In this document: piece after piece, positions 3,076 to 64,000 of the stretch
Layout of the letters: the number at the start of each line of letters is the position of its first letter
Numbering within the stretch: position 1 is the first letter of the stretch
NCBI GenBank assembly: GCA_040879145.1
Contig: JBBDKX010000036.1
Span: 434-64,433 of the forward strand
Source of the DNA: Candidatus Spechtbacterales bacterium
GTDB taxonomy: Bacteria > Patescibacteriota > Minisyncoccia > Spechtbacterales > 2-12-FULL-38-22
Length of the DNA: 64,000 nt
Direction: 5' to 3'
Notes under the pieces: model-generated
What the model saw: the letters and a program-made list of their open reading frames with translations, nothing else
Told to the model about the DNA's origin: nothing
Databases searched by the model: none
Position numbers and translations under genes: made by a program

Positions 3076-3168
3076 GCAATCCATCGGCAAGCTCAGGATA
3101 CTGAGTTTATCGAAGTATAGAAAATCCATCGGCAAGCTCAGGATACTGAGTTTATCTAAGTATGGAAA
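3076..3168. repeat. tandem direct repeat, 2 x ~46 bp
   Basis: aatccatcggcaagctcaggatactgagtttatcgaagtatagaaa repeated with 3 mismatches immediately after the prfA stop. Confidence 0.7.
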
Positions 3169-3392
3169 TCCTGGCGCTTAAAATATCGGCTCCATGGAAA
3201 CGTTCCTTAATTGTTCCTTAACAACCCTACGACCACTTCAAACTTGAGAGCATAAGCTTTCATTTATTAACGCTTATAAAACTAATTTTTATCCGGCTCT
3301 CAATTTGAAGTTCAGACTTGCAGTTTTAAATATGGTTTTTAAAAATTTGTTTAAACCTGTAAGTCTCGATTGAGAATAGGACAACCTCTACC

Positions 3393-13024: not shown

Positions 13025-13219
13025 TCAGAACTTGAACCTTCTAGGAGCTTTGATTTCAACAACCATGCGAAGTGCACCAAGCACTCCGGCGATGGCCACG
13101 AAAACGGAAAGGTGCTTTAACATCCACGGGCATACAAATTTCAGAGACACGTACATAGCGCCTCCTGAAACTGCCGCTCCGGCGATGGCCACACCAACAA
13201 CGAACAATATGTTCTTCAT
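13025..13219 (-). CDS. small two-helix membrane protein (64 aa)
   Basis: Strong RBS aaaggaggaaataATG; hydrophobic AIAGAAVSGGA and VFVAIAGVLGAL segments. Confidence 0.45.
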   Translation of the reverse strand: MKNILFVVGVAIAGAAVSGGAMYVSLKFVCPWMLKHLSVFVAIAGVLGALRMVVEIKAPRRFKF

Positions 13220-13547
13220 TATTTCCTCCTTTAGGAAATTTTCTCCCGCTTACTCGTTATTCAGCGGAAAGTTTAAAGAGCTACGATGTTTGTTTAAACA
13301 CCGGGAATGAGTACTTCAACGCGCTGTGCTTGCTCAGTATAAAATATGCAACATTTACTTTTATCCTGAGTTTACCGAAGGACTCCTTCTCGAAGTTTAA
13401 TAAAAAGAACTCTTACGGGAAGAGTTCTTTTTATTATTGCCTCACTCCAGCCGAAGCCAGGGTGGGTAATAGTTGCGAATAAATCGCAGCGCTGTGATTT
13501 AAAACTCTCTCCAAAGTTTTATTCTATTTTAAAGGTGAGTTTGTTTA

Positions 13548-14030
13548 AAAACTCATAATGAGAGGGACAAGCCTTTATAAAATATATTTGCCTCCCTCTC
13601 CTTATAAATTTTTAAACTGATTTTAAGAACTCAGAATGAGAGGGCAAAGCGTGTTGTATAACTTTTTGCCTCCCTCTCCTTCCGAATGCTTAAACCTATT
13701 GTTCACTATTTACTGCTAACTGATTTTGTGAGGTACTGATAGCGAGAGAGTCAAGGTATGTAGTATTACTTTTGACCTACTCTCTCCCTATCAATATCTC
13801 AATTTTTACTTTTCATTCTATATTTACATTATAACATGCTTTAAATTATTTGTCAAGGGTTTTTAGTGATTTTGTAAAAATTTATGACAAAAAACTTTTT
13901 TCACTTTCCTTTAAGAACATCGCCATTATATCATACAACAAAAAATCTGTCAACCCCAATCGACAAAAAATTTAAATTTTTGTGAGGGGTTAAAAGCTTT
14001 TTTGACATTATTTTACCACCCCTCTCCTTT
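13548..14030. repeat. array of about 4 imperfect hairpin repeat units (gagaggga...tccctctcc core) in a ~1-kb non-coding AT-rich region
   Basis: Units at ~13548-13610, 13627-13690, 13738-13800 and 13982-14030; the first two are tandem with a ~78-bp period. Confidence 0.5.
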
Positions 14031-14087
14031 TTCCAGTAAACGGCAAAATAAAAAAACTGCCTATCGGCAATTTAAAATTTATCTAAA

Positions 14088-14286
14088 GGATTTCTGGTAT
14101 TAATTTTATTCCGTCGTAAGCGGGAATGAGAGAGCTTTGTGCAAATACCCGAAGCGAGTAGAAAAACGGCTCTGCCGCGAGGCCTATCCCGAAGGGTAGC
14201 TGGCGTTTTTCGTAAACGAGCGAGGTTGTCCCGCATTTCTTGAAGCGAACGAATGGCAGCGTGGAATAAAATTATACCAGAAATCC
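14088..14286. ncRNA. structured element with ends pairing (24-bp terminal inverted repeat) around a GC-rich core; copy 1 of 2
   Basis: Shares the core ttttattccgtcgtaagc...gggaatgagRgagctttgtgcaaatacccgaagc...gcgaacgaatggcagc..gtggaataaaat with 57396-57652; the outer stems differ but stay complementary in each copy. Confidence 0.4.
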
Positions 14287-14287
14287 T

Positions 14288-15307
14288 TTACTTCTTTTTT
14301 CTACCTATCACCATTTTAGATCGTTTTACTATATGCTCAACATCCATTTCAAAAACCCCAAAAAGCTCATCCGGTTCGCCACTCTCTCCAAACCTGTCCC
14401 TCGTTCCTATAAACTCCTGGGGCACAGGATAATGCTGGCTTAAATATTCACTTACCGCCGAACCCATGCCTCCTAAAATATTATGCTCTTCCGCTGTTAC
14501 TATAGCTCCTGTTTTTCTAACAGACGCCTCAATGGTCTCACCATCCAACGGCTTTATTGTATGACTGTTTATAACTTCCGCCTTGATCCCCTCCTCCTCT
14601 AATTCTTTAGCAGCTAATAGGGCTTTATAAACTAAAGGCCCGCATGCAACGATAGTTACATCTTTGCCTTCTGTAATTACATATGCCTTGCCTACCTCAA
14701 ACGGAGTTTTTTCTGTAGTGAACACAGCATAATTCGCGCGTCCAAGGCGCAGATAAGCAGGGCCGGGGCGTTCTGCCAGTTCCATGGTCGCTCTCTTTGC
14801 TTCATGTACATCCGCGGGAGCCACAACTGTCATACCCGGATGTGTCCTCATTAAAGCAATGTCTTCAAGCGCCTGATGTGTCGCGCCGTCAGGGCCTACA
14901 GAAATTCCCGCGTGAGAGCCCACAACTTTTACATTTATTTCTTTACTCTCTTCAGCTCCCCAGCTATTATAACTTATTGTTGTCCGTATCTGCTCATTGT
15001 TGCGCCCGGGAGAAAACACGGCATAAGACGACATAAAAACAATCTTTCCCGCGGCTGCCATTCCACTGGCAATAGTAGCGAGATTTTGTTCCGCCACTCC
15101 AAGCTCTACAAATCTTTCGGGGAATTTTTCGGCGAAAAAATGAGTGTTTGTGCTTTCTGTAAGATCGGCGCACAAAGCAACGATTTTCTCGTTTTTCTCC
15201 CCAGCTTCAAGCAGACCCTTTCCATAGCCGGCACGGGTTTTAGCCTTTTCTATTTTATCCACATCAAAAAGATTTGATACTAATTTTAGCTTTTTATTTA
15301 TTTTCAT
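14288..15307 (-). CDS. tkt: transketolase, C-terminal (pyrimidine-binding / C-terminal domain) subunit of a split enzyme
   Basis: Tkt central/C-terminal domain sequence; pairs with the N-terminal subunit just upstream. Confidence 0.88.
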   Translation of the reverse strand: MKINKKLKLVSNLFDVDKIEKAKTRAGYGKGLLEAGEKNEKIVALCADLTESTNTHFFAEKFPERFVELGVAEQNLATIASGMAAAGKIVFMSSYAVFSPGRNNEQIRTTISYNSWGAEESKEINVKVVGSHAGISVGPDGATHQALEDIALMRTHPGMTVVAPADVHEAKRATMELAERPGPAYLRLGRANYAVFTTEKTPFEVGKAYVITEGKDVTIVACGPLVYKALLAAKELEEEGIKAEVINSHTIKPLDGETIEASVRKTGAIVTAEEHNILGGMGSAVSEYLSQHYPVPQEFIGTRDRFGESGEPDELFGVFEMDVEHIVKRSKMVIGRKKK

Positions 15308-16379: not shown

Positions 16380-16546
16380 AATTATTGTGTGGAGTGATTT
16401 TTAAATAAACGCCGTTGCAAACGCATACCCATAAAATGATTTTGTATTGTAAATTTATGCCACACTTTTGCTTCGCAGCGTTTGCAGTGGCAAAAATTTG
16501 CAATACAAAATCTATAAATAAAAAGAGTGGGGTGTTTATTTAAAAA

Positions 16547-19236: not shown

Positions 19237-19875
19237 TTATTTTATTCCCAACTTTTTAAACTCTCTTTTTAAATCTTCTATTCCCCTAAATAAAACAGCA
19301 TCCATGCCCACTGCTTCAGCGCCGTCTATATTTGGCTGAAGGTCATCTATAAATACTGATTCTTCCGCTTTAACCTCTAATTTTTCAAGCGCTAATTTAT
19401 AAATTTCAGGACGTGGTTTATACAAATCTACCTCATTAGATAAAATAACCTCGTCAAAATGCTCTAAAAAGCCGAAATTCTTAAACACCTTCACATGATC
19501 ATCTATCGTATTTGAGATTATGCCAAGCTTATATTTACCGGGAGCCCTAAGTCCTTTTATTAATTCTACCATTTTTTTGTCCGTTCTTACCGTGCGCTTA
19601 TACACACCCGGGAATATATCATCCAAAACTTCATCTGCGGGGGGCTCAATATTTAACGCCTTACAAACTCTTTTCCAAAATTCAATATCCGTTATCTCCC
19701 CTGCCTGCAAAGTATCTATTTCGGCATTAAATGCCTGCATGTATTTCTCTTTCTCAACGGAAAAAAGCCCGATAGCGTAATCGTGCAGGCTGTCGTTGTT
19801 CCAGCGGGTTAAAATTACCCCACCTATGTCAAAAATTATAGCTTTTATTGTTGGATTTTTTTTCATTCTATTCAT
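19237..19875 (-). CDS. HAD-superfamily hydrolase
   Basis: IIFDIGGVIL motif I; HAD-like spacing of the later motifs. Confidence 0.75.
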   Translation of the reverse strand: MNRMKKNPTIKAIIFDIGGVILTRWNNDSLHDYAIGLFSVEKEKYMQAFNAEIDTLQAGEITDIEFWKRVCKALNIEPPADEVLDDIFPGVYKRTVRTDKKMVELIKGLRAPGKYKLGIISNTIDDHVKVFKNFGFLEHFDEVILSNEVDLYKPRPEIYKLALEKLEVKAEESVFIDDLQPNIDGAEAVGMDAVLFRGIEDLKREFKKLGIK

Positions 19876-20012
19876 TTTAACATACGTACTGCCGATTCTA
19901 GAAACTAAAAACCGGCATAATGAACCGCACCCCATTTAGTGGACACGAAAACGTCCACTTTTTTGTATTTTGATACAAAAGAGAATACAATTAATTCAAT
20001 AAACAAAAAAAT

Positions 20013-20426
20013 ATGAGAAAAGAATTCACCCAGGATGAAATAAGAAGGTTAAACTCCAATGATGGCGTACAGAGCTGTACATCCAAGAGTATAACATTCA
20101 CCGAGACATTTAAAACAAAGGCTCTAAAGAGGTATGCGGATGGCCTAATGCCGATTCAGATATTCAGAGATATGGGCCTGGATGTTAACATAATCGGAAG
20201 AAAAACTCCCAAACGATGCATAGAAAGATGGAGAAAGCAGCTTAAAACAGAAGGTAGCCTTAAAGATAGTCGGGGCAAGCATTCTAAAGGAGGAGGCAGA
20301 AAACCAAAAGAAAAGATACCTAAAGATGAAAAGGAAAGAATAAAGTATCTTGAAGCCAAAGTGGCATATCTTGAGAAAGAGAACGCTTTTTTAGCAAAGC
20401 TCCGGGCCAAAAGAAAGGAGGAGTAA
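20013..20426 (+). CDS. IS3-family transposase OrfA (HTH + leucine zipper)
   Basis: 137 aa with a basic/LZ C-terminus KYLEAKVAYLEKENAFLAKL. Confidence 0.85.
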   Translation: MRKEFTQDEIRRLNSNDGVQSCTSKSITFTETFKTKALKRYADGLMPIQIFRDMGLDVNIIGRKTPKRCIERWRKQLKTEGSLKDSRGKHSKGGGRKPKEKIPKDEKERIKYLEAKVAYLEKENAFLAKLRAKRKEE

Positions 20427-21286
20427 TAATACTCAGGCCGCATCAGAAGTATGCTATTATCAGGAGCATACACAAGAACATTAAGATACTCTGCGAAATA
20501 GCAGAAGTATCAACAAGCGGATACTACAAAAGGCTCAAAACCGCGGATGATAAAGATAAGGACTACGAAGACTATCTGACTATCAAAAAGATATGCCAAA
20601 AAGGCAAAATGAGGTGGGGATATCGCAGAGTATGCATGGAATTAGATGGAAAGATGAACCACAAGAAGATCCTGCGCATAATGAACAAGTACGGACTTCT
20701 GGCAAAAACAAGGAGAGCCAATCCTTACAGGCAGATGGCTAAAAAGACCCAAGAACATAGAACCTTTCCAAATATATTAGATCGCAATTTCAAACAAGAA
20801 CATCCGCGCTCAGTATTTTGCGCAGATATCACATATCTTCCTTTTAATCACCGTTTCGCGTATCTGTCTGCCGTGAAGGACATAGCCACCAAGGAAATCG
20901 TAGCAGCACACCTTTCCATGCACATAGACGTGGAACTGGTGATAAGGACCATGGAAAAGTTCCGTAAAGATTCGTATATGCATAAAGAAGCCCTGATCCA
21001 TTCAGATCAAGGCTTCCATTACACCAATCCGGAGTTCATTGCGCTAACGAAACAGCTTAGATTAACGCAGTCAATGTCTAGAAAAGGAAATTGCATAGAC
21101 AACGCGCCAATAGAATCTTTCTTCGGGCACTTCAAGGATGAGATAGATTACAAGTCATGCAGAACATTTGAAGAATTAGAAATGCTCATTAACAATTACA
21201 TAGACCATTACAACAACGAAAGGAGGCAATGGGAATTAAAAAAGATGACCCCCGTACAATACAGAGATCATCTTTTGATGAAATAG
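20375..21286 (+). CDS. IS3-family transposase OrfB (DDE integrase core), expressed by a -1 frameshift from orfA
   Basis: The -1 frame opens at 20375; slippery heptamer T TTT TTA at 20387-20393; STSGYYKR, HSDQGFHYT and NAPIESFFGHFK motifs. Confidence 0.85.
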   Translation, partial: ERERFFSKAPGQKKGGVIILRPHQKYAIIRSIHKNIKILCEIAEVSTSGYYKRLKTADDKDKDYEDYLTIKKICQKGKMRWGYRRVCMELDGKMNHKKILRIMNKYGLLAKTRRANPYRQMAKKTQEHRTFPNILDRNFKQEHPRSVFCADITYLPFNHRFAYLSAVKDIATKEIVAAHLSMHIDVELVIRTMEKFRKDSYMHKEALIHSDQGFHYTNPEFIALTKQLRLTQSMSRKGNCIDNAPIESFFGHFKDEIDYKSCRTFEELEMLINNYIDHYNNERRQWELKKMTPVQYRDHLLMK

Positions 21287-21338
21287 CCGCTTTTTTATTC
21301 GTGTCCACTAAATGGGGTGCGGTTCATTATGCCGGTTT

Positions 21339-21629
21339 TTAGTTTCTTCTCTGAATTTCCCTGTATACTACTGAGCGATGTTCTATCAATAAAATATATA
21401 TATTGCGCCCGTTTACCTTAAAAATAATCCTGTAATCCCCCACTCTTAATTTTCTATACCCTTTCAAATTTTGCCGCAATGGCTGGCCGAATATTTCAGG
21501 ACGCGTTGAAAGCTTTGTCTCTATGCTCTCTTTGATGCGCTTTTGCCAGATTTTACTTAATTTGGGAATATCTTCAGAAATAACAAGCGGATGATATTCT
21601 ATACTAAACTTACTTCCAGGCATTTTCAT
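21339..21629 (-). CDS. RelE/ParE-family type II toxin
   Basis: LRVGDYRIIFKVNGRNIYILLIEHRSVVY; the stop codon lies inside the IS3 right terminal repeat. Confidence 0.8.
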   Translation of the reverse strand: MKMPGSKFSIEYHPLVISEDIPKLSKIWQKRIKESIETKLSTRPEIFGQPLRQNLKGYRKLRVGDYRIIFKVNGRNIYILLIEHRSVVYREIQRRN

Positions 21630-24187: not shown

Positions 24188-24347
24188 CAAAAGCCGGTCA
24201 GGGCATCCCACACTTTAAACCCGTATGCTGCGCGCTGCGGGTTCTCTTATTTATATAATGTGGAAATTTTCAGATTTTGACGCAAATCTACCTGCCTGCC
24301 GGCAGGCAGGGGCGCTGACAACGAAATGCACCAAATTTTAAAGTTCA

Positions 24348-38301: not shown

Positions 38302-38385
38302 GCGCAGATGGCGGAATCGGTAGACGCGCTACGTTCAGAACGTAGTGGGCGCAAGCCCGTGGAGGTTCAAGTCCTCTTCTGCGCA
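38302..38385 (+). tRNA. tRNA-Leu (anticodon CAG), type II with a long variable arm
   Basis: GCGCAGA acceptor; GGCGGAATCGGTAGACGC D-arm; CTACG-TTCAGAA-CGTAG anticodon arm; GGAGGTTCAAGTCCTCT T-arm. Confidence 0.9.
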
Positions 38386-38387
38386 CA

Positions 38388-38544
38388 ATTTAACGAAGTG
38401 AAATTGAGAGTAGGAGAGGATGCAGAACCTCAGGAAGGGGTCCCACCAGAGGCGGGCAAGCAGGCCTGCCTGCCGGCTCGCCTCGCTCTCTCGGCGGAGC
38501 GGGCAGGCAGGGAAGCGGGGGGAGTCCTCTTCTGCGCACATGTA
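38388..38544 (+). repeat. GC-rich ~140-bp insert ending in an 18-bp direct repeat of the tRNA-Leu 3' end (agtcctcttctgcgcaca)
   Basis: Contains the CCTGCCTGCC...GGGCAGGCAGG palindrome (38465-38511); an attL/attR-like duplication. Confidence 0.6.
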
Positions 38545-40405: not shown

Positions 40406-40426
40406 AATATAAAATTTTATCAAACT

Positions 40427-40453
40427 TAAAACCCCGCTTTACACGGGGTTTTA
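40427..40453. terminator. bidirectional rho-independent terminator aaaaccccgctttacacggggtttt
   Basis: GC stem flanked by A-run and T-run. Confidence 0.6.
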
Positions 40454-40500
40454 AGTTTGATATTTATATTTTGACTAAATGGGAAAACCGGTTTTCCCAT

Positions 40501-42131: not shown

Positions 42132-42275
42132 AGATTTTATTTCGGCTCTACCTCACAAAATAGGTATTAGGTTTTAGCTATTAGGTATTACACTAGTGTA
42201 GCACCTAATAGCTAAAACCTAATACCTGCGAGCCTGTCTGCGTGCGTTCACGCATAGGCAGGCGAAGCAAGCTTG
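42132..42275 (-). repeat. R2 repeat copy upstream of pgm, with a perfect 25-bp inverted repeat AGGTATTAGGTTTTAGCTATTAGGT
   Basis: Reverse complement gcttcgcctgcctatgcgtgaacgcacgcagacaggctcgcaggtattaggttttagctattaggt... Confidence 0.65.
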
Positions 42276-43891: not shown

Positions 43892-44006
43892 TTGTATTAT
43901 AAAAAGAACCTACAAAGAGGATCTTTATACTAAGTAAAACAGCAAACCAACACTAAAAAAACCGCTCCAATGGAGCAGTTTTTTTAGTGTTGGAAATTAA
44001 TATTTT

Positions 44007-55116: not shown

Positions 55117-55127
55117 AAAATTTTATT

Positions 55128-55262
55128 CCTGCCTGCGCCGGCTACGCTAGCGCGGCAGGCAGGTTGCTTAGCCTTACAAGTAGGTTTTAGGTACTAGGGG
55201 TTAGGTATTAGTCTAATACCTAAAAGCTAAAACCTGATACCTGCTCGCGAAGCGAGCTTAAT
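55128..55262 (-). repeat. R2-like repeat upstream of rpoB (a variant lacking the inner GC hairpin but with an adjacent cctgcctgcgcc...gcggcaggcagg hairpin)
   Basis: Reverse complement gctcgcttcgcgagcaggtatcaggttttagcttttaggtattagactaatacctaacccctagtacctaaaacctac. Confidence 0.6.
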
Positions 55263-55512
55263 TTAAACAGACAAAAAAACACCTGCTCCGCAGATACGGA
55301 GTTTCTTTGAGACTGCTATTCAGTTTTATTTTTTACTTTTCAACCCCAAAATATTGATAGAACCCCCACCTCTAAGGGTTTATGATATACTCTTATACAT
55401 AATACCTGTGTTTAAAAAAAAGTCAACCCCAATCATATTTTGTAAAGCAAAATATGGAATTTTTAATGTTTTAATTTTCAAATCAAAAGATAAGGCAAAA
55501 ATGGAACAAAAG

Positions 55513-55695
55513 CTATTTTTTCCAATCCTTTATAATAATCTTGCCGTCTTTTTCTTCAACTACAACTTTTTGCCGCTCGCGCCAGCCGAGCTTTTTTACT
55601 ATCTCTTTTGGTAAAGTTAAACCAAACGAAGCGCCCTCGCGCCCTGTCCGCATTATTTTCCTTATATTTTTTTCTTCTAATTTCCGCCTGCCCAT
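55513..55695 (-). CDS. AbrB/MazE/SpoVT-family small DNA-binding protein (solo)
   Basis: IRKIMRTGREGASFGLTLPKEIVKKLGW...DGKIIIK swapped-hairpin pattern. Confidence 0.55.
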   Translation of the reverse strand: MGRRKLEEKNIRKIMRTGREGASFGLTLPKEIVKKLGWRERQKVVVEEKDGKIIIKDWKK

Positions 55696-55912
55696 ATTTT
55701 TTATTATATAATTTGTTATATAATAGTCAAACTTATCTGTTGCATAGTTTTTCTATTTCTATAAAAACTTTTTGAAAATCTTTGTTTATAAAAAATGTAT
55801 CAATAAATCTTTTTCTATTTTCTTCGGAAATATTAAGGATCTTATCTATCTTCCACGCCTCAAAACCCTGTGATTTGCCCTTTTCAACCTTAAGGTCATT
55901 TATATCTCCTTC

Positions 55913-56296
55913 CTATTGAAAAACATAAATCGCGCGCAGTACATTGTTAGTCATCCCTGTTATCTCATCATAAAAACGGCCTCTCATGGTCAAAATATAT
56001 TGAAGTTCGTCAATATTCGCCTCTATGCTTGCTTCTTCTTCAAGCTCCTTGACGGCTGCAGTTTCAAAGCTATCACCTATCTCAACATGCCCGCCAACCG
56101 AAGCGTCAAGCAAATCGGGATATGTATCCTTATCTTTAGCCCTGTGTTGGAATATTATTTTACAATCCGGAGTATACAACCATACGTGCACCTCTCTGTG
56201 CAATAAACCCTTTTCGTGTATATCCTCTCTTGTTGCCTCACCAATTATTTCTCCTTTTTTATTTACAATATTTAATTTTTCGCCATCTTTAGTCAT
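55913..56296 (-). CDS. Nudix hydrolase
   Basis: Nudix box GGHVEIGDSFETAAVKELEEEASI. Confidence 0.8.
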   Translation of the reverse strand: MTKDGEKLNIVNKKGEIIGEATREDIHEKGLLHREVHVWLYTPDCKIIFQHRAKDKDTYPDLLDASVGGHVEIGDSFETAAVKELEEEASIEANIDELQYILTMRGRFYDEITGMTNNVLRAIYVFQ

Positions 56297-56332
56297 AATC
56301 TTATAATAACAAAAACCCCGCCTTGTGCGGGA

Positions 56333-56725
56333 TTATCTCTTGTCAATTTTATTGGAATGGCTTTTCAGCCATTTTACAATGTCAGAAATTTCTAATTTAT
56401 CCTCAACTGTCTTTAATGCAAACTCAACCACCTCTTCATCAGTGGCTTTAAATATATATCCATTATTTTCCAAAAACACAGAGGCGACAGTTATTGCGGT
56501 TCGTTTATTACTGTCCACAAAAGGATGCTGTGTTATTATCTCCCGCAGATATACAGCGGCTTTTTCGTAAATACTGTTGTAAAGAATTTTTCCAAAAACT
56601 TTTTGTTTTGGCGCGCTTTCCAAACTCAAAACGGCGTGACTATCACGCACACCATGAGAGCCTCCAGTTTCATCAACTACCATGGAATGTATTAAAAGTA
56701 TTTGCTCTGAAGTTAAATAGCGCAC
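56333..56725 (-). CDS. Doc/Fic-family toxin
   Basis: HPFVDSNKRTA (Doc variant of the Fic motif). Confidence 0.8.
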   Translation of the reverse strand: MRYLTSEQILLIHSMVVDETGGSHGVRDSHAVLSLESAPKQKVFGKILYNSIYEKAAVYLREIITQHPFVDSNKRTAITVASVFLENNGYIFKATDEEVVEFALKTVEDKLEISDIVKWLKSHSNKIDKR

Positions 56726-56727
56726 AA

Positions 56728-56967
56728 TTATTTATCCGCTAATTCATTTAAAGCTCCTCGATAACGGTCAATGAAGTTCATAGTAAGCTTGGCTATCTTC
56801 TCATCTTCTTTAGATATCTCTGTGGCGGAATGTATTGTTATAACCTTATTCTTCCTATTGAAATTTACCTCAACATTATCACCCGGCTTTAAGCCCAGTT
56901 CTTTTAACGCTTTCTTTGAAAGGGTAACTCCTGCGGAGGTTCCTATTTTTATAACTTTTTGAGACAT
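56728..56967 (-). CDS. AbrB/MazE-type antitoxin (Phd-like partner of Doc)
   Basis: VIKIGTSAGVTLSKKALKELGLKPGDNVEV; 3 bp upstream of doc. Confidence 0.7.
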   Translation of the reverse strand: MSQKVIKIGTSAGVTLSKKALKELGLKPGDNVEVNFNRKNKVITIHSATEISKEDEKIAKLTMNFIDRYRGALNELADK

Positions 56968-57018
56968 ATTTTCAAAAATTAATATTATATAAGCTACACT
57001 ATATAATCTGCGCCGTTC

Positions 57019-57081
57019 GAAAAAAGAAATAAATTTTAAGAAAAAAGCAAGCTTTTTTCTTAAAATTTATTTCTTTTTTGC
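57019..57081. promoter_or_regulatory. 63-bp near-perfect palindrome (29-bp arms) upstream of the phd/doc-like operon
   Basis: gaaaaaagaaataaattttaagaaaaaagc aag gcttttttcttaaaatttatttcttttttgc. Confidence 0.55.
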
Positions 57082-57185
57082 TCGCTATCCTCGATTATAA
57101 TAACATTATAATATATGCAGGAATGCTGTCAATAGCTTACGCTTACCACAAGTACTCTTCTTGGGCACCAAACGCCTCGCCCGCC

Positions 57186-57295
57186 GTGTATATCCTCTCT
57201 TGTTGCCTCACCAATTATTTCTCCTTTTTTATTTACAATATTTAATTTTTCGCCATCTTTAGTCATACTCTTATTATACTAAAAAACCGCCCTCT
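57186..57295 (-). repeat. orphan duplicate of the Nudix gene 5' end (start codon + first ~26 codons, 85 bp identical to 56216-56300)
   Basis: gtgtatatcctctcttgttgcctcaccaattatttctccttttttatttacaatatttaatttttcgccatctttagtcata present twice. Confidence 0.8.
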
Positions 57296-57395
57296 TAGGC
57301 AGTCAGGCTTTTCAGATTTTGAATTAGTTCTATATCGCAAAAATTCTAAGATTTGCTTACACTCAACTCAACCAAGGCCGGAAACAGCAACCATT

Positions 57396-57652
57396 TTATT
57401 CCGTCGTAAGCCCGTCTCGCCTGAGGCTTGCCGAGGTGGACGGGAATGAGGGAGCTTTGTGCAAATACCCGAAGCTTATAAGAAAAGGGTCTTGCCTTTA
57501 GGCCTATCTTTTGCGTGTGGGCAAAAGTAGCTGTCGCTTTTCCGTTAAGTAAGCGAGGTTTACCCGCCGAAGCCTTGGCGTAGGCTGGGCTGTATTTGCC
57601 AAAGCGAGCGAATGGCAGCCTGCCTGCCGGCAGGCAGGCGTGGAATAAAATG
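57396..57652. ncRNA. structured element copy 2 (same core as 14088-14286), with a 14-bp terminal inverted repeat and an embedded CCTGCCTGCCGGCAGGCAGG palindrome
   Basis: Conserved blocks ttttattccgtcgtaagc, gggaatgagggagctttgtgcaaatacccgaagc, aggcctatc, gcgaatggcagc, gtggaataaaat. Confidence 0.4.
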
Positions 57653-57675
57653 GTTACTATTGGAGGCTAAATCAC

Positions 57676-58788
57676 CTACTCTACTCCTATGCTTCTAAAT
57701 GTTGAATGGCGGTAAATACTCTGCACTATTCCCAGCGCTAAAAACAAGGTTAAAAGGCTTGAACCTCCATAACTTACAAATGGTAGCGGAAGACCTGTTA
57801 TGGGAGCTATGCCAAAAGACATCGCGATATTTAGGAATAACTGAAAAATTATCATAACAGAAACTCCTATTATTGTTAGTCTTGCAAAGTTGTCACTCGC
57901 GTACTTGGATATCACAAAAAGACGCCAAAACAGAACTCCGTACAATAAAATAATTGCCAAAGACATAACTACGCCAAATTCCTCTATTATAGCCGCGAAT
58001 ATAAAGTCGGTGTGGGCTTCAGGTAAAAAGCCGAGCTGGCTTTGAGTTCCCTGGGCAAAACCCTTTCCCCACATACCGCCTGAACCCACAGACACTCTTG
58101 ACTGTATTGAATTATATCCGGTTCCATAAGGGTCGGCTGTAGGATTTAAAAAAGTATGTATTCTGTCTTTTTGATAGGGTTGTAGCATAAAGCTCCACGC
58201 CAAAGATGCAAGAATAATTCCGACCATTCCTAAAACTGCCAAATGCTTAACCTTAATTCCCGCCACAAGCATCATTCCAACCCAAATGACTGTTAATATC
58301 GCGAATGAGCCAAAATCGGGTTGTATTAAAACAAGCGCTGAGGGAATAAACACATACAATCCCGACACCACAATATGGTGCATTCTGTATATCTCAACAT
58401 GCCTCATAGAAAAATACTTAGCAAGAATAAATACAAGTATAAGCTTTAAAGGTTCAACCGGCTCTATATTTATAGGGCCCAACGGTATCCAGCTCTTAGC
58501 TCCCCTAACCTCCGGAGCAAATAAATAAACAATGAGCAAGCCAACTAACGCAAGGGCGTACAAAAACAACACAGGAGAAAAGTGAAGACGCAAAAGCCTG
58601 TAATCAATTGAAGAAAAGAAAAAAAATACGGCCACACCCAAACCAAGCCACACTAACTGTTTATAAAAATTCAAAAGATCGGGCTGGCTCAGGCTAAACA
58701 AAGAAACGAGTCCCACAACAACAAGTAAAATGGATGCTGTAAACAGCACCCAGTCATAACCCTGAAGTTTTTTGCCGAAATTGTTCAT
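57676..58788 (-). CDS. SEDS-family peptidoglycan glycosyltransferase (RodA/FtsW)
   Basis: 10 TM helices; LPLPFVSYGGSSLL conserved C-terminal motif. Confidence 0.85.
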   Translation of the reverse strand: MNNFGKKLQGYDWVLFTASILLVVVGLVSLFSLSQPDLLNFYKQLVWLGLGVAVFFFFSSIDYRLLRLHFSPVLFLYALALVGLLIVYLFAPEVRGAKSWIPLGPINIEPVEPLKLILVFILAKYFSMRHVEIYRMHHIVVSGLYVFIPSALVLIQPDFGSFAILTVIWVGMMLVAGIKVKHLAVLGMVGIILASLAWSFMLQPYQKDRIHTFLNPTADPYGTGYNSIQSRVSVGSGGMWGKGFAQGTQSQLGFLPEAHTDFIFAAIIEEFGVVMSLAIILLYGVLFWRLFVISKYASDNFARLTIIGVSVMIIFQLFLNIAMSFGIAPITGLPLPFVSYGGSSLLTLFLALGIVQSIYRHSTFRSIGVE

Positions 58789-59793: not shown

Positions 59794-59883
59794 TATATAA
59801 AACCTTCTAATACATCCTTATACTATCATAAATTTAAATGTTGATTAATAGAAAAATCAACCAAAATAAAAAAACAGATATAA

Positions 59884-59989
59884 GGCGTCTACCTACTTTC
59901 CCAGCGCGAAGCTAGTATCATCGGCCTTAGAGGATTTCACTGCCGTGGTCGGAATGGGAACGGGTGGAGCACCTCCAGCATAAACGCCT
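59884..59989 (-). rRNA. rrf: 5S ribosomal RNA
   Basis: Reverse complement ...cccgttcccattccgaccacggcagtgaaatcctctaaggccgatgatactag...; terminal stem ggcgtc/gacgcc. Confidence 0.9.
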
Positions 59990-60043
59990 TATATCTGTTT
60001 TTTTGTTTTTATTAACACGAACAAAACCTAAAAAGTTATTCAA

Positions 60044-60060: not shown

Positions 60061-60415
60061 GCGGTTGAAACACTGACCGCTTTCCCTCTGTGTTTGTAAA
60101 AACACAGAGGTATGACTATTAGTACTACTCAGCTTAACCCCTCTCAGGGCTTACACTTATAGCCTATCAACCTGTTAGTCTAACAGGAGTCTAAGAGCTC
60201 TAATCTTGAGGCGGGCTTCGTGCTTATATGCTTTCAGCACTTATCCCTTCCGAACATAGCTACCCAGCGATGCTCCTGGCGGAACAACTGGTACACCAGA
60301 GGTTCGTTCACTCCGGTCCTCTCGTACTAGGAGCGAGTCCCCTCAAAGCTCAAGCGCCCACGGAAGATAGGGACCAACCTGTCTTGCGACGGTCTGAACC
60401 CAGCTCGCGTAGCGT

Positions 60416-60451
<36 letters not shown>

Positions 60452-60481
60452 CCAGCCCCAGGATACGCCGAGCCGACATCG

Positions 60482-60872
60482 CTGTCGATTTTTCTCTTGT
60501 TGCCAAGAGGATCGGACTATATCTTCATCCTATTGCGGACTTTAGGCGTTCTTAGCCATAGCCTCGCTTTTTATAATAGGAGTCGGCGTGTTGTCCTTCA
60601 AATTTTTTCGAAGAACCTCCCCTTTCGGGTCAGTCTCTACGGGGTCATAACCCAATTTGTATTCCATAGATGGAATAATATGTGGTTTAACGATCTGCTT
60701 AAGCAATGGAATACTCGATTAACCACAGGTCTTTGAAATTGAGTTAGACTTCCCACGGTATTGTCCATACGTATATTCTACCATTATTTGGTAGCGCTAG
60801 TGCATGGAGTTCACCGTTATAAGCCGAATTGTTTTTGTATGAGATTACTCTCATAGGCACCCCGATATGTTA
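60482..60872 (-). ncRNA. probable group I intron (~391 nt, no ORF) inserted at 23S position ~2500 (E. coli numbering) in the peptidyl-transferase region
   Basis: Interrupts GGCACCU | CGAUGUCGGCUC; 5' exon ends in U, insert ends in G; IGS GGGGUGCC pairs with the exon GGCACCU; UAGUC P7-like element. Confidence 0.6.
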
Positions 60873-61492
60873 AGGTGCCGAACCTCCCCGTCGATGTGGA
60901 CTCTCGGGGGAGACCAGCCTGTTATCCCCGGGGTAACTTTTATCTGGTGATCTTCCTCTTTTCTATAAAAGAAGGTCGGTTCACTAAGTTCTGCTTTCGC
61001 AACTCTCTACTCCAGTAAACTGGAGTAGAGTCTGTTACTTCCCTGAGATTAAAATCACAGGGTTTTACAGAGCGCGGCTTATTTGCCTTGCAGTAAAGCT
61101 GGCTTGTGCCTTTACACTATCGCTCCGATTTCCATCCGGAGCTAGCCAACCTTAATAAACGCCTCCGCTACCATTTAGGAGGCAAGCGCCCCACTTAAAC
61201 TACCTACCATCCACTGTCCCGAATGTGTTTAGCATCCGGTTAGTCACAGTATTTTGAAAGATGGGTATTTCACTGGCGACTCCACACTGGCCGAAACCAG
61301 CGCTTCAAAGTCTCCCCACTATGCTACGCAGCCAAAACACTGCAACAATAGAAAGCTGTAGTAAAGCTCCCGGGGTCTTTCCGTCTATCCGCGGGTAACC
61401 GGCATCTTCACCGGTACTGCATTTTCACCGGGCTTCTCGTCGAGACAGTTGTCCAGTCGTTACGCCTTTCGTGCGGGACAGAACTTACCTGC

Positions 61493-61541
<49 letters not shown>

Positions 61542-62341
61542 CGGCGCTTGTATCACCAGCTTTCCAGCGAACTGGAAAACCAACAATACTTAACGTTCCG
61601 GCATTGGTCAGGCGTCACCCCCTATACATCCCCTTACGGGTTCGCAGGGAGCTGTGTTTTTGATAAACAGTCGCTAGACAGACTTTAGCTGCGCCCTATA
61701 TTGCTATAGGGAAGGCATATCCCTAAGTTACGCCTAGTTTTTTTGCCGAGTTCCTTGACGAGAACTCACCCGTTCGCCTTGGTATACTCTACCTGCCCAC
61801 CTGTGTCGGTTTGCGGTACGGATTCATATCTATTAACCTTAGAAGCTTTTCTCGGAAGGTTGCTGGGAGGAATAATCTCCATTACAGAGACTTTTCCCGA
61901 CGCTTAGAATTGCCTTACGGCCACCTGGGCATTTCTCCCAGGCATTCCTTACGCAAGGAACACAAATCCAATAACATGCTCCCCTTACTAACCTCCGTCA
62001 CTCCGTCGAATAAATATGAAGAGATGGAATATTAACCATCTGTCCATCCCCGTGACCCTTTCGGGCCCCGGGTTAGGGCCGCCTAACCCTTGGCTGATTG
62101 ACATTGCCAAGGAAACCTTGGGCTTTCGGCGTGGGGGTCTCTCACCCCCATTGCGGTTACTCATGCCAACATTCTCTCTTCCTGCCGCTCCACCATGCCT
62201 TACAGCACAGCTTCAGCGCAACAGAAATGCTCTCCTACCACACACTACCCAAAGGTAGTGCATCCACGTCTTCGGTAGTAAACTTTAGCCCCGTTAAATT
62301 TTCAGCGCAGAAACTCTCGACTAGTAAGCTGTTACGCACTT

Positions 62342-62374
<33 letters not shown>

Positions 62375-62878
62375 AGCTGTTTGTGAATTTCTACATCTTT
62401 TCCCACTTAGTTTACATTTAGGGACCTTAGACTGTGATCTGGGCTGTTTCCCTTTTGAACATGGAGCTTAGCCCCCATATTCTAACTTCCTGCTATGACT
62501 TGATAGAATTCGGAGTTTATCTGATCTTACTCAGCAAATGCCTCGCAAGACCAATTAGTGCTCTACCTCTACCAAGATAAGGCAGGAGCTAGCCCTAAAG
62601 CTATTTCGGAGAGAACCAGCTATTACCAGGCTCGATTAGCTTTTCACTGCGACCCACGGCTCATCCCCTCCTATTGCATCAGAAGTGGGTTCGGGCCTCC
62701 CCCCGGTCTTACCCGGGGTTCACCCTGGCCATGGGTAGATCGCCTGGCTTCGGGTCTATTGCGTGCTACTTTAATTCGCCGTATTAAGACTCGGTTTCCC
62801 TATGGCTTCGTTCGTTAAAGAACTTAGCCTGCAACACACAATAACTCGTTGGCTCATTCTGCAAAAGGCACTGCGTCA

Positions 62879-63013
62879 CCCCTCACATGGAATGAATCCT
62901 GCTTACATTTCACTAAAAAGTGATGATGTTTTTAGCATTATTTTAATTTAAGAATATTTCCTGAACTACGATTTTACCCGCAGGCCAAGAAATATTCATT
63001 CCATGTGAGGGGC
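62879..63013 (-). other. ~135-nt AT-rich expansion hairpin in 23S domain I (replaces the short E. coli hairpin ACGCTTAGGCGTG)
   Basis: cccctcacatggaatgaat ... attcattccatgtgagggg closing stem. Confidence 0.5.
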
Positions 63014-64000
63014 TCCGCATCCTTGTAGGCATATGGTTTCAGGTTCTATTTCACCGCCCTCACCGGGCTACTTTTCACCTTTCCCTCACGGTACTTGTTC
63101 GCTATCGATCACCAAAGATATTTAGCCTTACCCGATAGGTCGGGTAGATTCACCCGAGATGGACGTGTCTCGGGCTACTCAGGATACACAACCGGTAATC
63201 AAAACTTTTAAAATACGGGGCTTTTACCCTCTTTGGCCGCCCTTTCCAGGGTCATTTTTCTAAGTTCTTCATACGTTATGTCGTGTCCTACAACCCCATT
63301 TTGTGCAAGCACAAAATGGTTTGGGCTCCTCCCTCTTCGCTCGCCGCTACTAAGGGAATACGTGACCTAATGGTCTTTTGTATCTTTTCCTCCGCTTACT
63401 GAAATGTTTTACTTCAGCGGGTACGGTCTCCGGCATAAAGCCGGAGTACTGTGGGTTTGCCACAGTGGGTTTCCCCATTCGGAAATCTCCGGATCAAAGG
63501 TTGCTACGCACCTCCCCGAAGCTTATCGCAGCTACGCCACGTCCTTCATCCCTCTTTGGTGTCAAGGCATCCACCATATGCCCTTATAAAATGTTACAAC
63601 ACTCAACGGAATAAGTGTTGTAACTACGGTCAATGTAGATCTAACTCTGAGTCGTAAAGGAAGGGTCTAAAGACCCCCTACAAACCAAAGTTAGATAACC
63701 GCGGAATTATAAGACTCTCTTGTTAGTCCTCTATCTATCAAATAAAATCAAACTTGAAAGATAAAGGACAATTGTATTCCATATAAATATAGAATACGGA
63801 TAACTTTTTATGTCTTGTCGTTGTCCTCTAACTTTTCCTGTAAAGTTTTGAGGACATATGAATCTCATAGAAAGACCTACAAGATTATTTGACAAAGTTC
63901 AACAAAAAAGCCGCTCGCAAGCGACTGTCTGAGTGCGCGCAAATTGTGGCGCATTAGCCGCTTGTCTTAAATTTCTTTATTGAGCTTTTTTGCATACTCA

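Follow-up and report, generated by a model that had tools for sequence, protein, structure and literature searches.

A small family of structured, rod-like modules at gene ends in two Candidatus Spechtbacterales genomes

Short repeats of the ERIC/IRU and Correia/NEMIS classes are non-coding, occur in multiple copies between genes and near gene ends, and carry paired ends that close into a long stem-loop; longer and shorter versions differ by internal insertion or deletion, and their presence varies between related genomes. Transcripts of the ERIC and Correia classes fold and affect neighbouring mRNAs (PMC2229807, PMC3184786). Here we describe an element with the same general features, two copies of which lie in a 64,000-nt stretch of a Candidatus Spechtbacterales bacterium (contig JBBDKX010000036.1, positions 434 to 64,433 of the forward strand, assembly GCA_040879145.1; hereafter the window). 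The element differs from ERIC and Correia repeats in that it has no TA duplication or termini, is G+C-rich relative to its genome, adopts a branched fold with ~33 invariant unpaired, purine-rich positions, includes one copy (c1) with wholly different outer arms, and has no known parent insertion sequence (IS). It also resembles multi-copy bacterial small RNAs with a protein-binding internal loop, such as the Y RNAs (YrlA/YrlB) and the 6S-1/6S-2 RNAs, whose closing helix varies yet stays complementary, whose conserved loop lies near the base below a variable distal part, and whose long and short paralogues stand side by side. Unlike these RNAs, the element matches no Rfam family, has no Ro/TROVE or other partner gene near it, contains no conserved promoter or terminator within the unit, and is non-syntenic between relatives.

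The element belongs to a small, previously undescribed, lineage-restricted family of structured modules, with five members of 88–291 nt in two uncultured Ca. Spechtbacterales metagenome-assembled genomes (MAGs) of the candidate phyla radiation (CPR). Its fold is conserved by compensatory change, its unpaired blocks are under sequence constraint, and loops and bulges are the only places where extra hairpins are tolerated; such conservation is what selection on a structured nucleic acid would leave, and decaying repeats would not show it. The best reading is of a module that combines features of miniature inverted-repeat transposable elements (MITEs) with features of small RNAs. Specifically, we favour, though tentatively, a new non-autonomous and copy-number-variable structured module whose fold and loops would be selected on one strand, most likely as a + sense RNA, with the basal stem and loop as its working part. 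We call it non-autonomous because it has neither a promoter nor a gene of its own, and no target duplication. Non-coding RNA has been little explored in the small genomes of CPR bacteria (Patescibacteria). A ~200-nt element that has a well-supported fold, near-invariant loops and, between two genomes, stronger conservation than a core gene is therefore a candidate functional RNA, or else a candidate for a new kind of non-autonomous mobile element dependent on a folded single strand.

Members of the family and their extent

Copy 1 (c1; 14088–14286, + strand, 199 nt) scores 182–186 bits against the covariance model of the family (E ~1e-46), and copy 2 (c2; 57377–57667, + strand, 291 nt) scores 194.5 bits. 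An initial annotation, made from the sequence of the window, had drawn attention to two look-alike copies at these places on account of their shared blocks, and the blocks proved to be exact and unique to both: the 24-mer GAGCTTTGTGCAAATACCCGAAGC matches the window solely at 14132 and 57452 (chance expectation, 0 matches), ATTTTATTCCGTCGTAAGC matches it solely at 14103 and 57393, and CGAATGGCAGC is present at 14250 and 57609. The terminal pairing that it proposed also stands, as ATTTTATTCC and GGAATAAAAT are complementary in both c1 (14103–14112 with 14263–14272) and c2 (57393–57402 with 57642–57651). The same is true of the flanking extensions, said to differ between the copies and to remain complementary within each: in c1, GGATTTCTGGTATTA (14088–14102) pairs with TATACCAGAAATCC (14273–14286) over 14 bp with one bulge, and in c2, AACC pairs with GGTT. 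The extent given for c2 (57396–57652) was too short, however, as c2 continues outward through GCCGGAAACAGCAACC (57377–57392) and GGTTACTATTGGAGGC (57652–57667), and we count these outer arms as part of the element because they are conserved in three copies of another genome. Compared with dinucleotide shuffles, both window copies fold much more stably on either strand (z = -4.2 to -5.4). Each copy adjoins the 3′ end of a minus-strand gene, as had been noted at the outset; the measured distances are 1 nt between c1 and the stop codon of a transketolase C-terminal-half gene (tktC-like open reading frame (ORF), 14288–15307, − strand) and 8 nt between c2 and the stop codon of rodA (57676–58788, − strand). 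The RodA encoded here is 100% identical to an NCBI protein annotated as Candidatus Spechtbacterales, although an exact-sequence look-up gave no record.

The three copies of the other genome lie on a single 3.4-kb contig of another Spechtbacterales MAG (assembly GCA_033721955.1, contig JAWVZY010000057.1, locus L001), all on one strand: L1F (212 nt, L001 3107–3318), L1c3 (c3; 189 nt, L001 1897–2085) and an 88-nt “mini” copy, L1m (L001 2988–3075), located 31 nt from L1F. This locus emerged when one genome for each species was scanned with an 18-mer; the eight other matches were coding or chance. A covariance-model search, which had been proposed from the start and which we ran together with nhmmer, recovered all five members, three of them beyond the window; the model matches span 14084–14289 and 57374–57672 in the window and 3102–3321, 1892–2088 and 2983–3078 in L001, with scores of 70–216 bits. 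The copies fall into three subtypes, namely c2 with L1F (80% identical), L1c3 with L1m (91% identical), and c1 alone, which is 59–70% identical to the other full-length copies and 56% identical to the mini copy.

Searches elsewhere yielded no additional member. Neither copy matched an Rfam family, either in a gathering-threshold scan of the whole window or at E ≤ 10 on 450-nt stretches, both strands. A 19-mer scan of metagenome contigs gave one match (L010), which was false; four conserved-block scans of viral contigs gave chance matches only; blastn at a distant setting found no match to c2 in phages and plasmids; and ~310 kb of sequence around RodA in related genomes, including nine relatives (L011–L013, L017–L030), held no further member. 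With filters off, a covariance-model scan of the window returned, besides c1 and c2, only generic hairpins, and the weak matches among them (16433–16515, 42159–42228 and others) were rejected as generic palindromes that score on both strands and are missing the loop motifs. A coding reading of the element was likewise rejected, as stop codons break every frame in some copy and the indels are not multiples of three. ARAGORN and Rfam detect no tRNA or tmRNA in the window other than tRNA-Leu at 38302–38386.

Architecture and covariation of the rod

Read in the + sense from outside to inside, four of the five copies have common outer arms (GCCGGAAACAG... / ...CTGTTGRAGGC), which form a stem of GCC, a GGA loop, AACAG and 4–5 bp facing 4–5 bp, CUGUU, a GRA loop and GGC. 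The resulting symmetric 3×3 G-N-A/G-N-A internal loop is conserved in all four, and a G-C to C-G double change is also present in this stem. In c2 the 5′ arm (GCC-GGA-AACAG-CAACC, 57377–57392, +) pairs with 57652–57667, contains the 3×3 loop and has conserved counterparts in the L001 copies. In place of these shared arms c1 has an unrelated paired stem of 14 bp, in which the 5′ arm (14088–14102, +), unrelated to the arms of the other four copies, pairs with the 3′ arm (14273–14286, +); the latter is followed by a T-rich tract, TTTACTTCTTTTTT, with the stop codon of the tktC-like gene 1 nt off. The next helix inward, P1i (AUUUUAUUCC / GGAAUAAAAU), shows an A-U to C-G change in c3 and the mini copy and a U-A to C-G change in L1F; in c1 its 5′ arm (14103–14112, +) and 3′ partner (14263–14272) correspond to alignment columns 20–29 and 274–283. 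It is followed by P1x (GUCGU/RYGGC), with an invariant U·G and variation that is compatible with wobble pairing only.

Above P1x the strands open into an asymmetric basal loop of 16 vs 6 nt (5′ AAGCGGGARUGARNGA vs 3′ GANNGA), accompanied by a 3′ bulge, AGCGU; tandem G·A pairs are possible at either end of the loop. In c1 the 5′ side is the conserved basal block GTCGT-AAGCGGGAATGAGAGA (14113–14133, +), kept in the mini copy, of which GTCGT pairs with ATGGC (14253–14257, P1x) on the same strand and the rest is the purine-rich 5′ side of the loop. The 3′ side (14247–14272, +) comprises, in order, the loop strand GAACGA, the P1x arm ATGGC, the bulge AGCGT and the P1i arm GGAATAAAAT.

The basal loop is closed at its far end by P2 (GCUUUG(U)GCAAAUAC / GUAUUUGCCAAAGC), a long-range helix with an invariant bulged U. 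In L1c3 this helix reads GUUCAU(U)AGAAAUAU / AUAUUUCUAUGAGC, with five double-sided pair changes and the bulged U retained, and in L1F a C-G pair becomes U-A. The c2 version consists of 14 bp plus the bulged U (57454–57468, +, pairing with 57592–57605); that of c1 is partly degenerate, with 3 G·U pairs and 2 mismatches between GCTTTG(T)GCAAATAC (14134–14148, +) and 14233–14246. Single-sequence minimum free energy (MFE) structures of c1 and c2 form a local hairpin, GCUUUG..CGAAGC, which we rejected in favour of the long-range helix because L1c3 keeps P2 through five double changes and the local hairpin needs a register shift.

Beyond P2, CC/GG and G·A/A·G pairs make up a CCGA/GAGG helix, which is followed by a short helix and then by P3 (GAAAAN/NUUUUC), whose inner pair can be A-U, G-C or U-A, and a variable apex carries the hairpins P4 and Px, the latter changing from CUA(U)C..GUAG to UGA(G)C..GUCA. 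The distal domain of c1 (14149–14232, +) contains the CCGA..GAGG helix with tandem G·A, P3 (GAAAAACG / CGTTTTTC), P4 (GCC-GCGA-GGC) and Px (CTA(T)CCC-GAA-GGGTAG). A helix proposed by RNAalifold, CGUUU/AAGCG, was dropped for P3, which fits all four full copies, and a canonical K-turn at CCGA/GAGG was rejected because the order of the bulge and the G·A pairs does not fit.

The copies that depart most in length conform to this plan. The mini copy retains only the outer stem, P1i, P1x and the basal loop with its 3′ bulge, and folds accordingly. The sequences found in c2 only are all placed in loops, bulges or junctions: the 30-nt insertion, already recognized in the initial annotation, folds as a hairpin of its own on the 5′ side of the basal loop (within 57411–57444, +); a 33-nt extra branch lies where the GAGG helix meets the 3′ arm of P2 (57559–57591, +); and the 20-nt palindrome CCTGCCTGCCGGCAGGCAGG lies in the AGC/GT bulge (57619–57638, +). 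The palindrome had been described as a part of c2, and is real, but it does not characterize the family and belongs to a separate dispersed hairpin family.

We aligned the five sequences to the fold model and compared them with two controls, 500 column shuffles and alignments in which the 3′ partners were slid by 1–3 columns. Standard pairs make up 91.1% of the alignment cells. Double-sided changes occur in 23 of the 62 pairs, including 7 of 14 in P2 and 5 of 6 in Px, compared with 9.0 ± 2.2 in the shuffles (0/500 reach 23) and 1–7 in the slid alignments, and the covariation score is 0.294 vs 0.137. In addition, the single-sequence MFE structure of L1F reproduces the architecture derived by hand (z = -6.3). 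The earlier suggestion that the helices are under selection as a folded single strand is thus supported. Outside the helices, 33 unpaired columns are invariant, of which 26 are purines and 1 is C. The c2 and L1F copies are 80% identical, compared with 70% DNA identity between the rodA genes of their genomes, and the G+C content of the element (48–54%) exceeds that of the window (42%) and of the flanks (32–36%).

The rod-like outline, with its closing helix and internal loop, had prompted a comparison with 6S RNA and signal recognition particle (SRP) RNA, and some bacteria do carry two 6S paralogues. We nevertheless consider a housekeeping RNA of this kind, whether a 6S paralogue or SRP RNA, effectively refuted. 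No Rfam model matches either strand at E ≤ 10; the 6S model (RF00013) gives no gathering-score match in the window and none at E ≤ 10 around the copies, and the Rfam scans reveal neither domain IV motifs nor a model match for bacterial SRP RNA. In place of the central bubble and unbranched terminal stem of 6S RNA, the element has a loop that is basal and asymmetric and a distal part that branches into 3–4 helices. Copy number and locus also differ from those expected of 6S RNA, with three copies (one of them the mini) on one 3.4-kb contig and none at the syntenic sites of close relatives, 3′ of rodA in L011 and L012.

Two further systems, folded sites in single-stranded DNA (ssDNA) and retrons, share traits with the rod. 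A recombination or replication site in ssDNA, such as an attC-like site, a single-strand origin or an IS200/IS605-type end, would be expected to conserve structure over sequence in its stems, as the element does, and integron attC sites further resemble it in their single bulged bases, basal internal loop, variable apex (88–291 nt in total length here) and fixed orientation directly 3′ of ORFs; in L001 the ORF-element-ORF-elements layout with accessory genes even resembles a cassette array. Such a site is nonetheless very improbable. The paired R″/R′ consensus (RYYYAAC / GTTRRRY) is found on neither strand, the corresponding sequences being CGGAAAC / GTTGGAG in the + sense and CTCCAAC / GTTTCCG in the minus sense, and the GGA triplets are unpaired and face each other. 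The element is also much longer than known attC sites, it adjoins tktC and rodA, which are core genes in conserved synteny and not cassettes, and we saw no gene for an integron integrase, an HUH transposase or a Rep protein in the window. Retron msr-msd regions, like the element, have closing terminal inverted repeats (a1/a2) that differ between elements but stay complementary; unlike a retron, no copy has a reverse transcriptase gene beside it (the neighbours are tktC-like, rodA, NYN and CHRD genes), and copies are multiple and in tandem.

The selected strand and its possible role

Several asymmetries favour the + strand. Wobble pairs outnumber their opposite-strand equivalents, with a G·U:A·C ratio of 16:5 (p = 0.027); G·A/A·G oppositions, which would be C·U in the other sense, recur at helix ends and junctions; the loops are purine-rich; and the MFE is lower in the + sense in 5/5 copies (for example, -84 vs -61 and -65 vs -44 kcal/mol). 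From these we infer, short of proof, that the selected strand is the + strand of the window, antisense to the flanking genes.

The position of the copies suggests a different reading, in which the element would be a cis-acting module of the 3′ untranslated region (3′ UTR), transcribed on the gene (minus) strand together with tktC and rodA, and would serve as a 3′ stabiliser, an RNase III site or part of a terminator, similar to ERIC and Correia repeats. Consistent with this, the stop codons lie only 1 nt and 8 nt away, and an intrinsic-terminator-like hairpin with a T run follows on the gene strand just past the element, directly beyond c1 (14073→14054, − strand) and 70 nt beyond c2 (57304→57285, − strand). 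Moreover, the orientation to the upstream gene is identical at all four loci, other rod-like inserts fill the same post-stop position in relatives, and the minus-sense fold is also far above shuffles (z = -4.4 to -5.4). We still regard a 3′-UTR module as fairly unlikely, because the minus sense turns 16 G·U pairs into A·C mismatches and the tandem G·A into C·U, and makes the invariant unpaired positions pyrimidine-rich, with 12 C. In L001, every element is bracketed by strong gene-strand terminators consisting of a hairpin and T run (2962–2990, 3335–3375, 1830–1895 and 2095–2125), and those upstream of the elements would insulate them from the preceding genes. A simple stabiliser, furthermore, would not need ~33 invariant unpaired nt.

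Against our preferred reading of a + sense structured RNA stand a number of points, beginning with the size of the sample: only five copies from two MAGs are known, they include subfamilies (c2/L1F and c3/mini) and so represent fewer independent events than the cells counted, and the covariation was counted on an alignment fitted to the model. The assignment of the strand is weak, as the G·U:A·C ratio falls to 8:5 (p = 0.58) once the invariant-wobble helix P1x is left out; z-scores favour neither strand consistently, and the difference in MFE between strands is partly compositional. Near c1 and c2 there is no convincing + strand promoter, only weak -10-like hexamers of which none is conserved, no partner protein gene adjoins the copies, and conservation ends at the base of the rod. 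Finally, the order of stop codon, element and terminator on the gene strand fits co-transcription in the opposite sense.

If the + strand is indeed the selected one, the module would be transcribed as a + strand RNA from a convergent unit, antisense to the end of the neighbouring gene. Its working part would be the basal stem and conserved loop, since these are the sole portion surviving in the 88-nt mini copy, and we speculate that they most likely form a protein-binding platform or a cis-acting site for the propagation of the module itself, with the distal domain as an accessory, structurally constrained extension. A bolder proposal, which we hold to be distinctly unlikely, is that these modules represent a new class of mobile structured RNA in CPR bacteria: a promoter-less and protein-less rod that would spread between gene ends via a single-stranded RNA or ssDNA intermediate, with a purine-rich basal loop that recruits a host or helper enzyme or is itself catalytic or regulatory. 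Such an element would be similar to short interspersed nuclear elements (SINEs) or retrozymes and not to a DDE-type MITE.

Placement at gene ends and mobility

The gene order rodA-rpoB-rpoC-ftsK is conserved in relatives, where the gap between rodA and rpoB measures 0.2–0.5 kb, compared with 2.5 kb in the window. Here a strain-specific island of ~2.3 kb (55430–57718) separates rodA from the rpoB leader, with c2 at its rodA-proximal edge, and this island is missing from L011, the closest relative (RodA 90% identical, ~85% DNA identity). In addition to c2 the island contains a NUDIX gene (55913–56296), a Fic/Doc gene (56333–56725) with an AbrB-like partner (56728–56967), a 45-aa NUDIX-like N-terminal fragment (57129–57266) and a perfect promoter (57132→57105). 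No element is present 3′ of rodA in L011 or L012. In L013, which comes from the same MAG as L001, the segment adjoining c2 is shared (57272–57361, 73% identical), and the position of c2 is taken by a different well-folding insert of ~125–160 nt (L013 2806–2965, z = -5.0). In L027 another repeat lies 3′ of rodA (L027 1908–1962); it also occurs in L001 (within 2700–2960), with 26/28 nt in common with L001 2812–2839. L1F, the nearest relative of c2, has NYN and CHRD genes as its neighbours and not rodA. As the element is non-syntenic among relatives, its copies have been gained, lost or relocated between related genomes, and gene 3′ ends seem to act as hot spots at which several unrelated repeat families insert. 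The replacement of unrelated rod-like inserts by one another at one site matters for the annotation and binning of CPR MAGs and for our view of intergenic turnover in reduced genomes.

Many of these observations could be accommodated by an ordinary non-autonomous DNA transposon, that is, a MITE in which the rod would be a by-product of imperfect terminal inverted repeats, the conserved blocks would be transposase sites, and there would be no role as RNA. The family is multi-copy, non-coding and 88–291 bp long; the mini copy is internally deleted with both ends kept; subfamilies are common to both genomes at non-syntenic places; and long stem-loop transcripts are known for bacterial MITEs (PMC2229807). 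Copy-specific transposon ends had been left open as an explanation in the initial annotation, and that caution is justified in part, by the near-identical outer arms common to 4/5 copies and by orthologous sites that are either filled or empty, with c2 at the edge of a strain-specific island. It is weakened by the termini and the composition: a direct reading of the flanks showed that none of the five copies has a target-site duplication or TA termini, and the element is G+C-rich compared to its flanks, unlike classical MITEs, which are typically A+T-rich (PMC2229807). The outermost 14–15 nt of c1, moreover, are unrelated to those of the other copies yet paired, and the divergence sits in compensatory pairs while the internal unpaired blocks are invariant, which is unexpected between transposase-binding ends. 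On balance we think a MITE unlikely, albeit an explanation to be taken seriously. Because defining features of MITEs, 6S and SRP RNAs, attC sites and retrons are missing from the element, we do not assign it to any named family.

A search for a parent IS, which covered the window, found its only IS, of the IS3 family (19900–21347), to have unrelated ends. These are perfect 50-bp terminal inverted repeats that enclose OrfA (HTH_Tnp_2, 20013–20426) and OrfB (rve, 20609–21286), and the left one overlaps the start of a HAD-hydrolase gene (19237–19935). In L001, L1c3 and L1m have a common 3′ tail, GAAGCG-YR-TAAAAAACC, followed by a hairpin, and the unit duplicated in that genome therefore reaches beyond the rod.

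Other repeats occur near the copies and elsewhere in the window. The dispersed hairpin family to which the c2 palindrome belongs (CCTGCCTGC..GCAGGCAGG) has members at 24291–24310, 38465–38511, 55128–55163 and 57619–57638, with none expected by chance, and the c2 palindrome is identical to the 24291–24310 member, located 38 nt beyond the 3′ end of the gap gene. The 55128–55163 member forms part of the rpoB leader (55117–55165, − strand), where the hairpin CCUGCC..GGCAGG is followed by (G)GAAUAAAAUU and AUG, an arrangement conserved in L017 (3021–3055). This leader resembles the 3′ end of c2 (hairpin plus GUGGAAUAAAAU) in inverted orientation 2.5 kb apart, and may serve as a regulatory hairpin of the leader or as a partner in recombination. 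One CCTGCC hairpin also lies within a ~150-nt insert (38386–38536) directly after tRNA-Leu(CAG), which ends in a direct repeat of the tRNA 3′ end (GTCCTCTTCTGCGCA) and thus looks like an integration footprint at a tRNA.

Beside c1, 0.9 kb of sequence (13150–14080) contains no long ORFs and no Rfam match, and a permissive Rfam scan of 13150–14100 gave chance matches only. Its minus strand carries two perfect sigma70-type promoters, TTGACA-17-TATAAT (13953→13925 and 13856→13828), and the region includes at least four related hairpins, AAGGAGAGGG(A)GGCAAA..TTTGCCCTCTC, among them two tandem 78-nt units (13544–13699). Imperfect A+T-rich palindromes of 60–85 nt are found between genes at 16433–16515, 42159–42230, 57009–57088, 40408–40473 and 43939–44002; these match the covariance model weakly on both strands and are probably bidirectional terminators, with GCGAAGC at the tip of the one at 16433. 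Finally, the 23S rRNA gene (60099–63597, − strand) contains a group I intron (60493–60884) together with other large insertions that the bacterial model lacks, and the 5S rRNA gene lies at 59880–59991.

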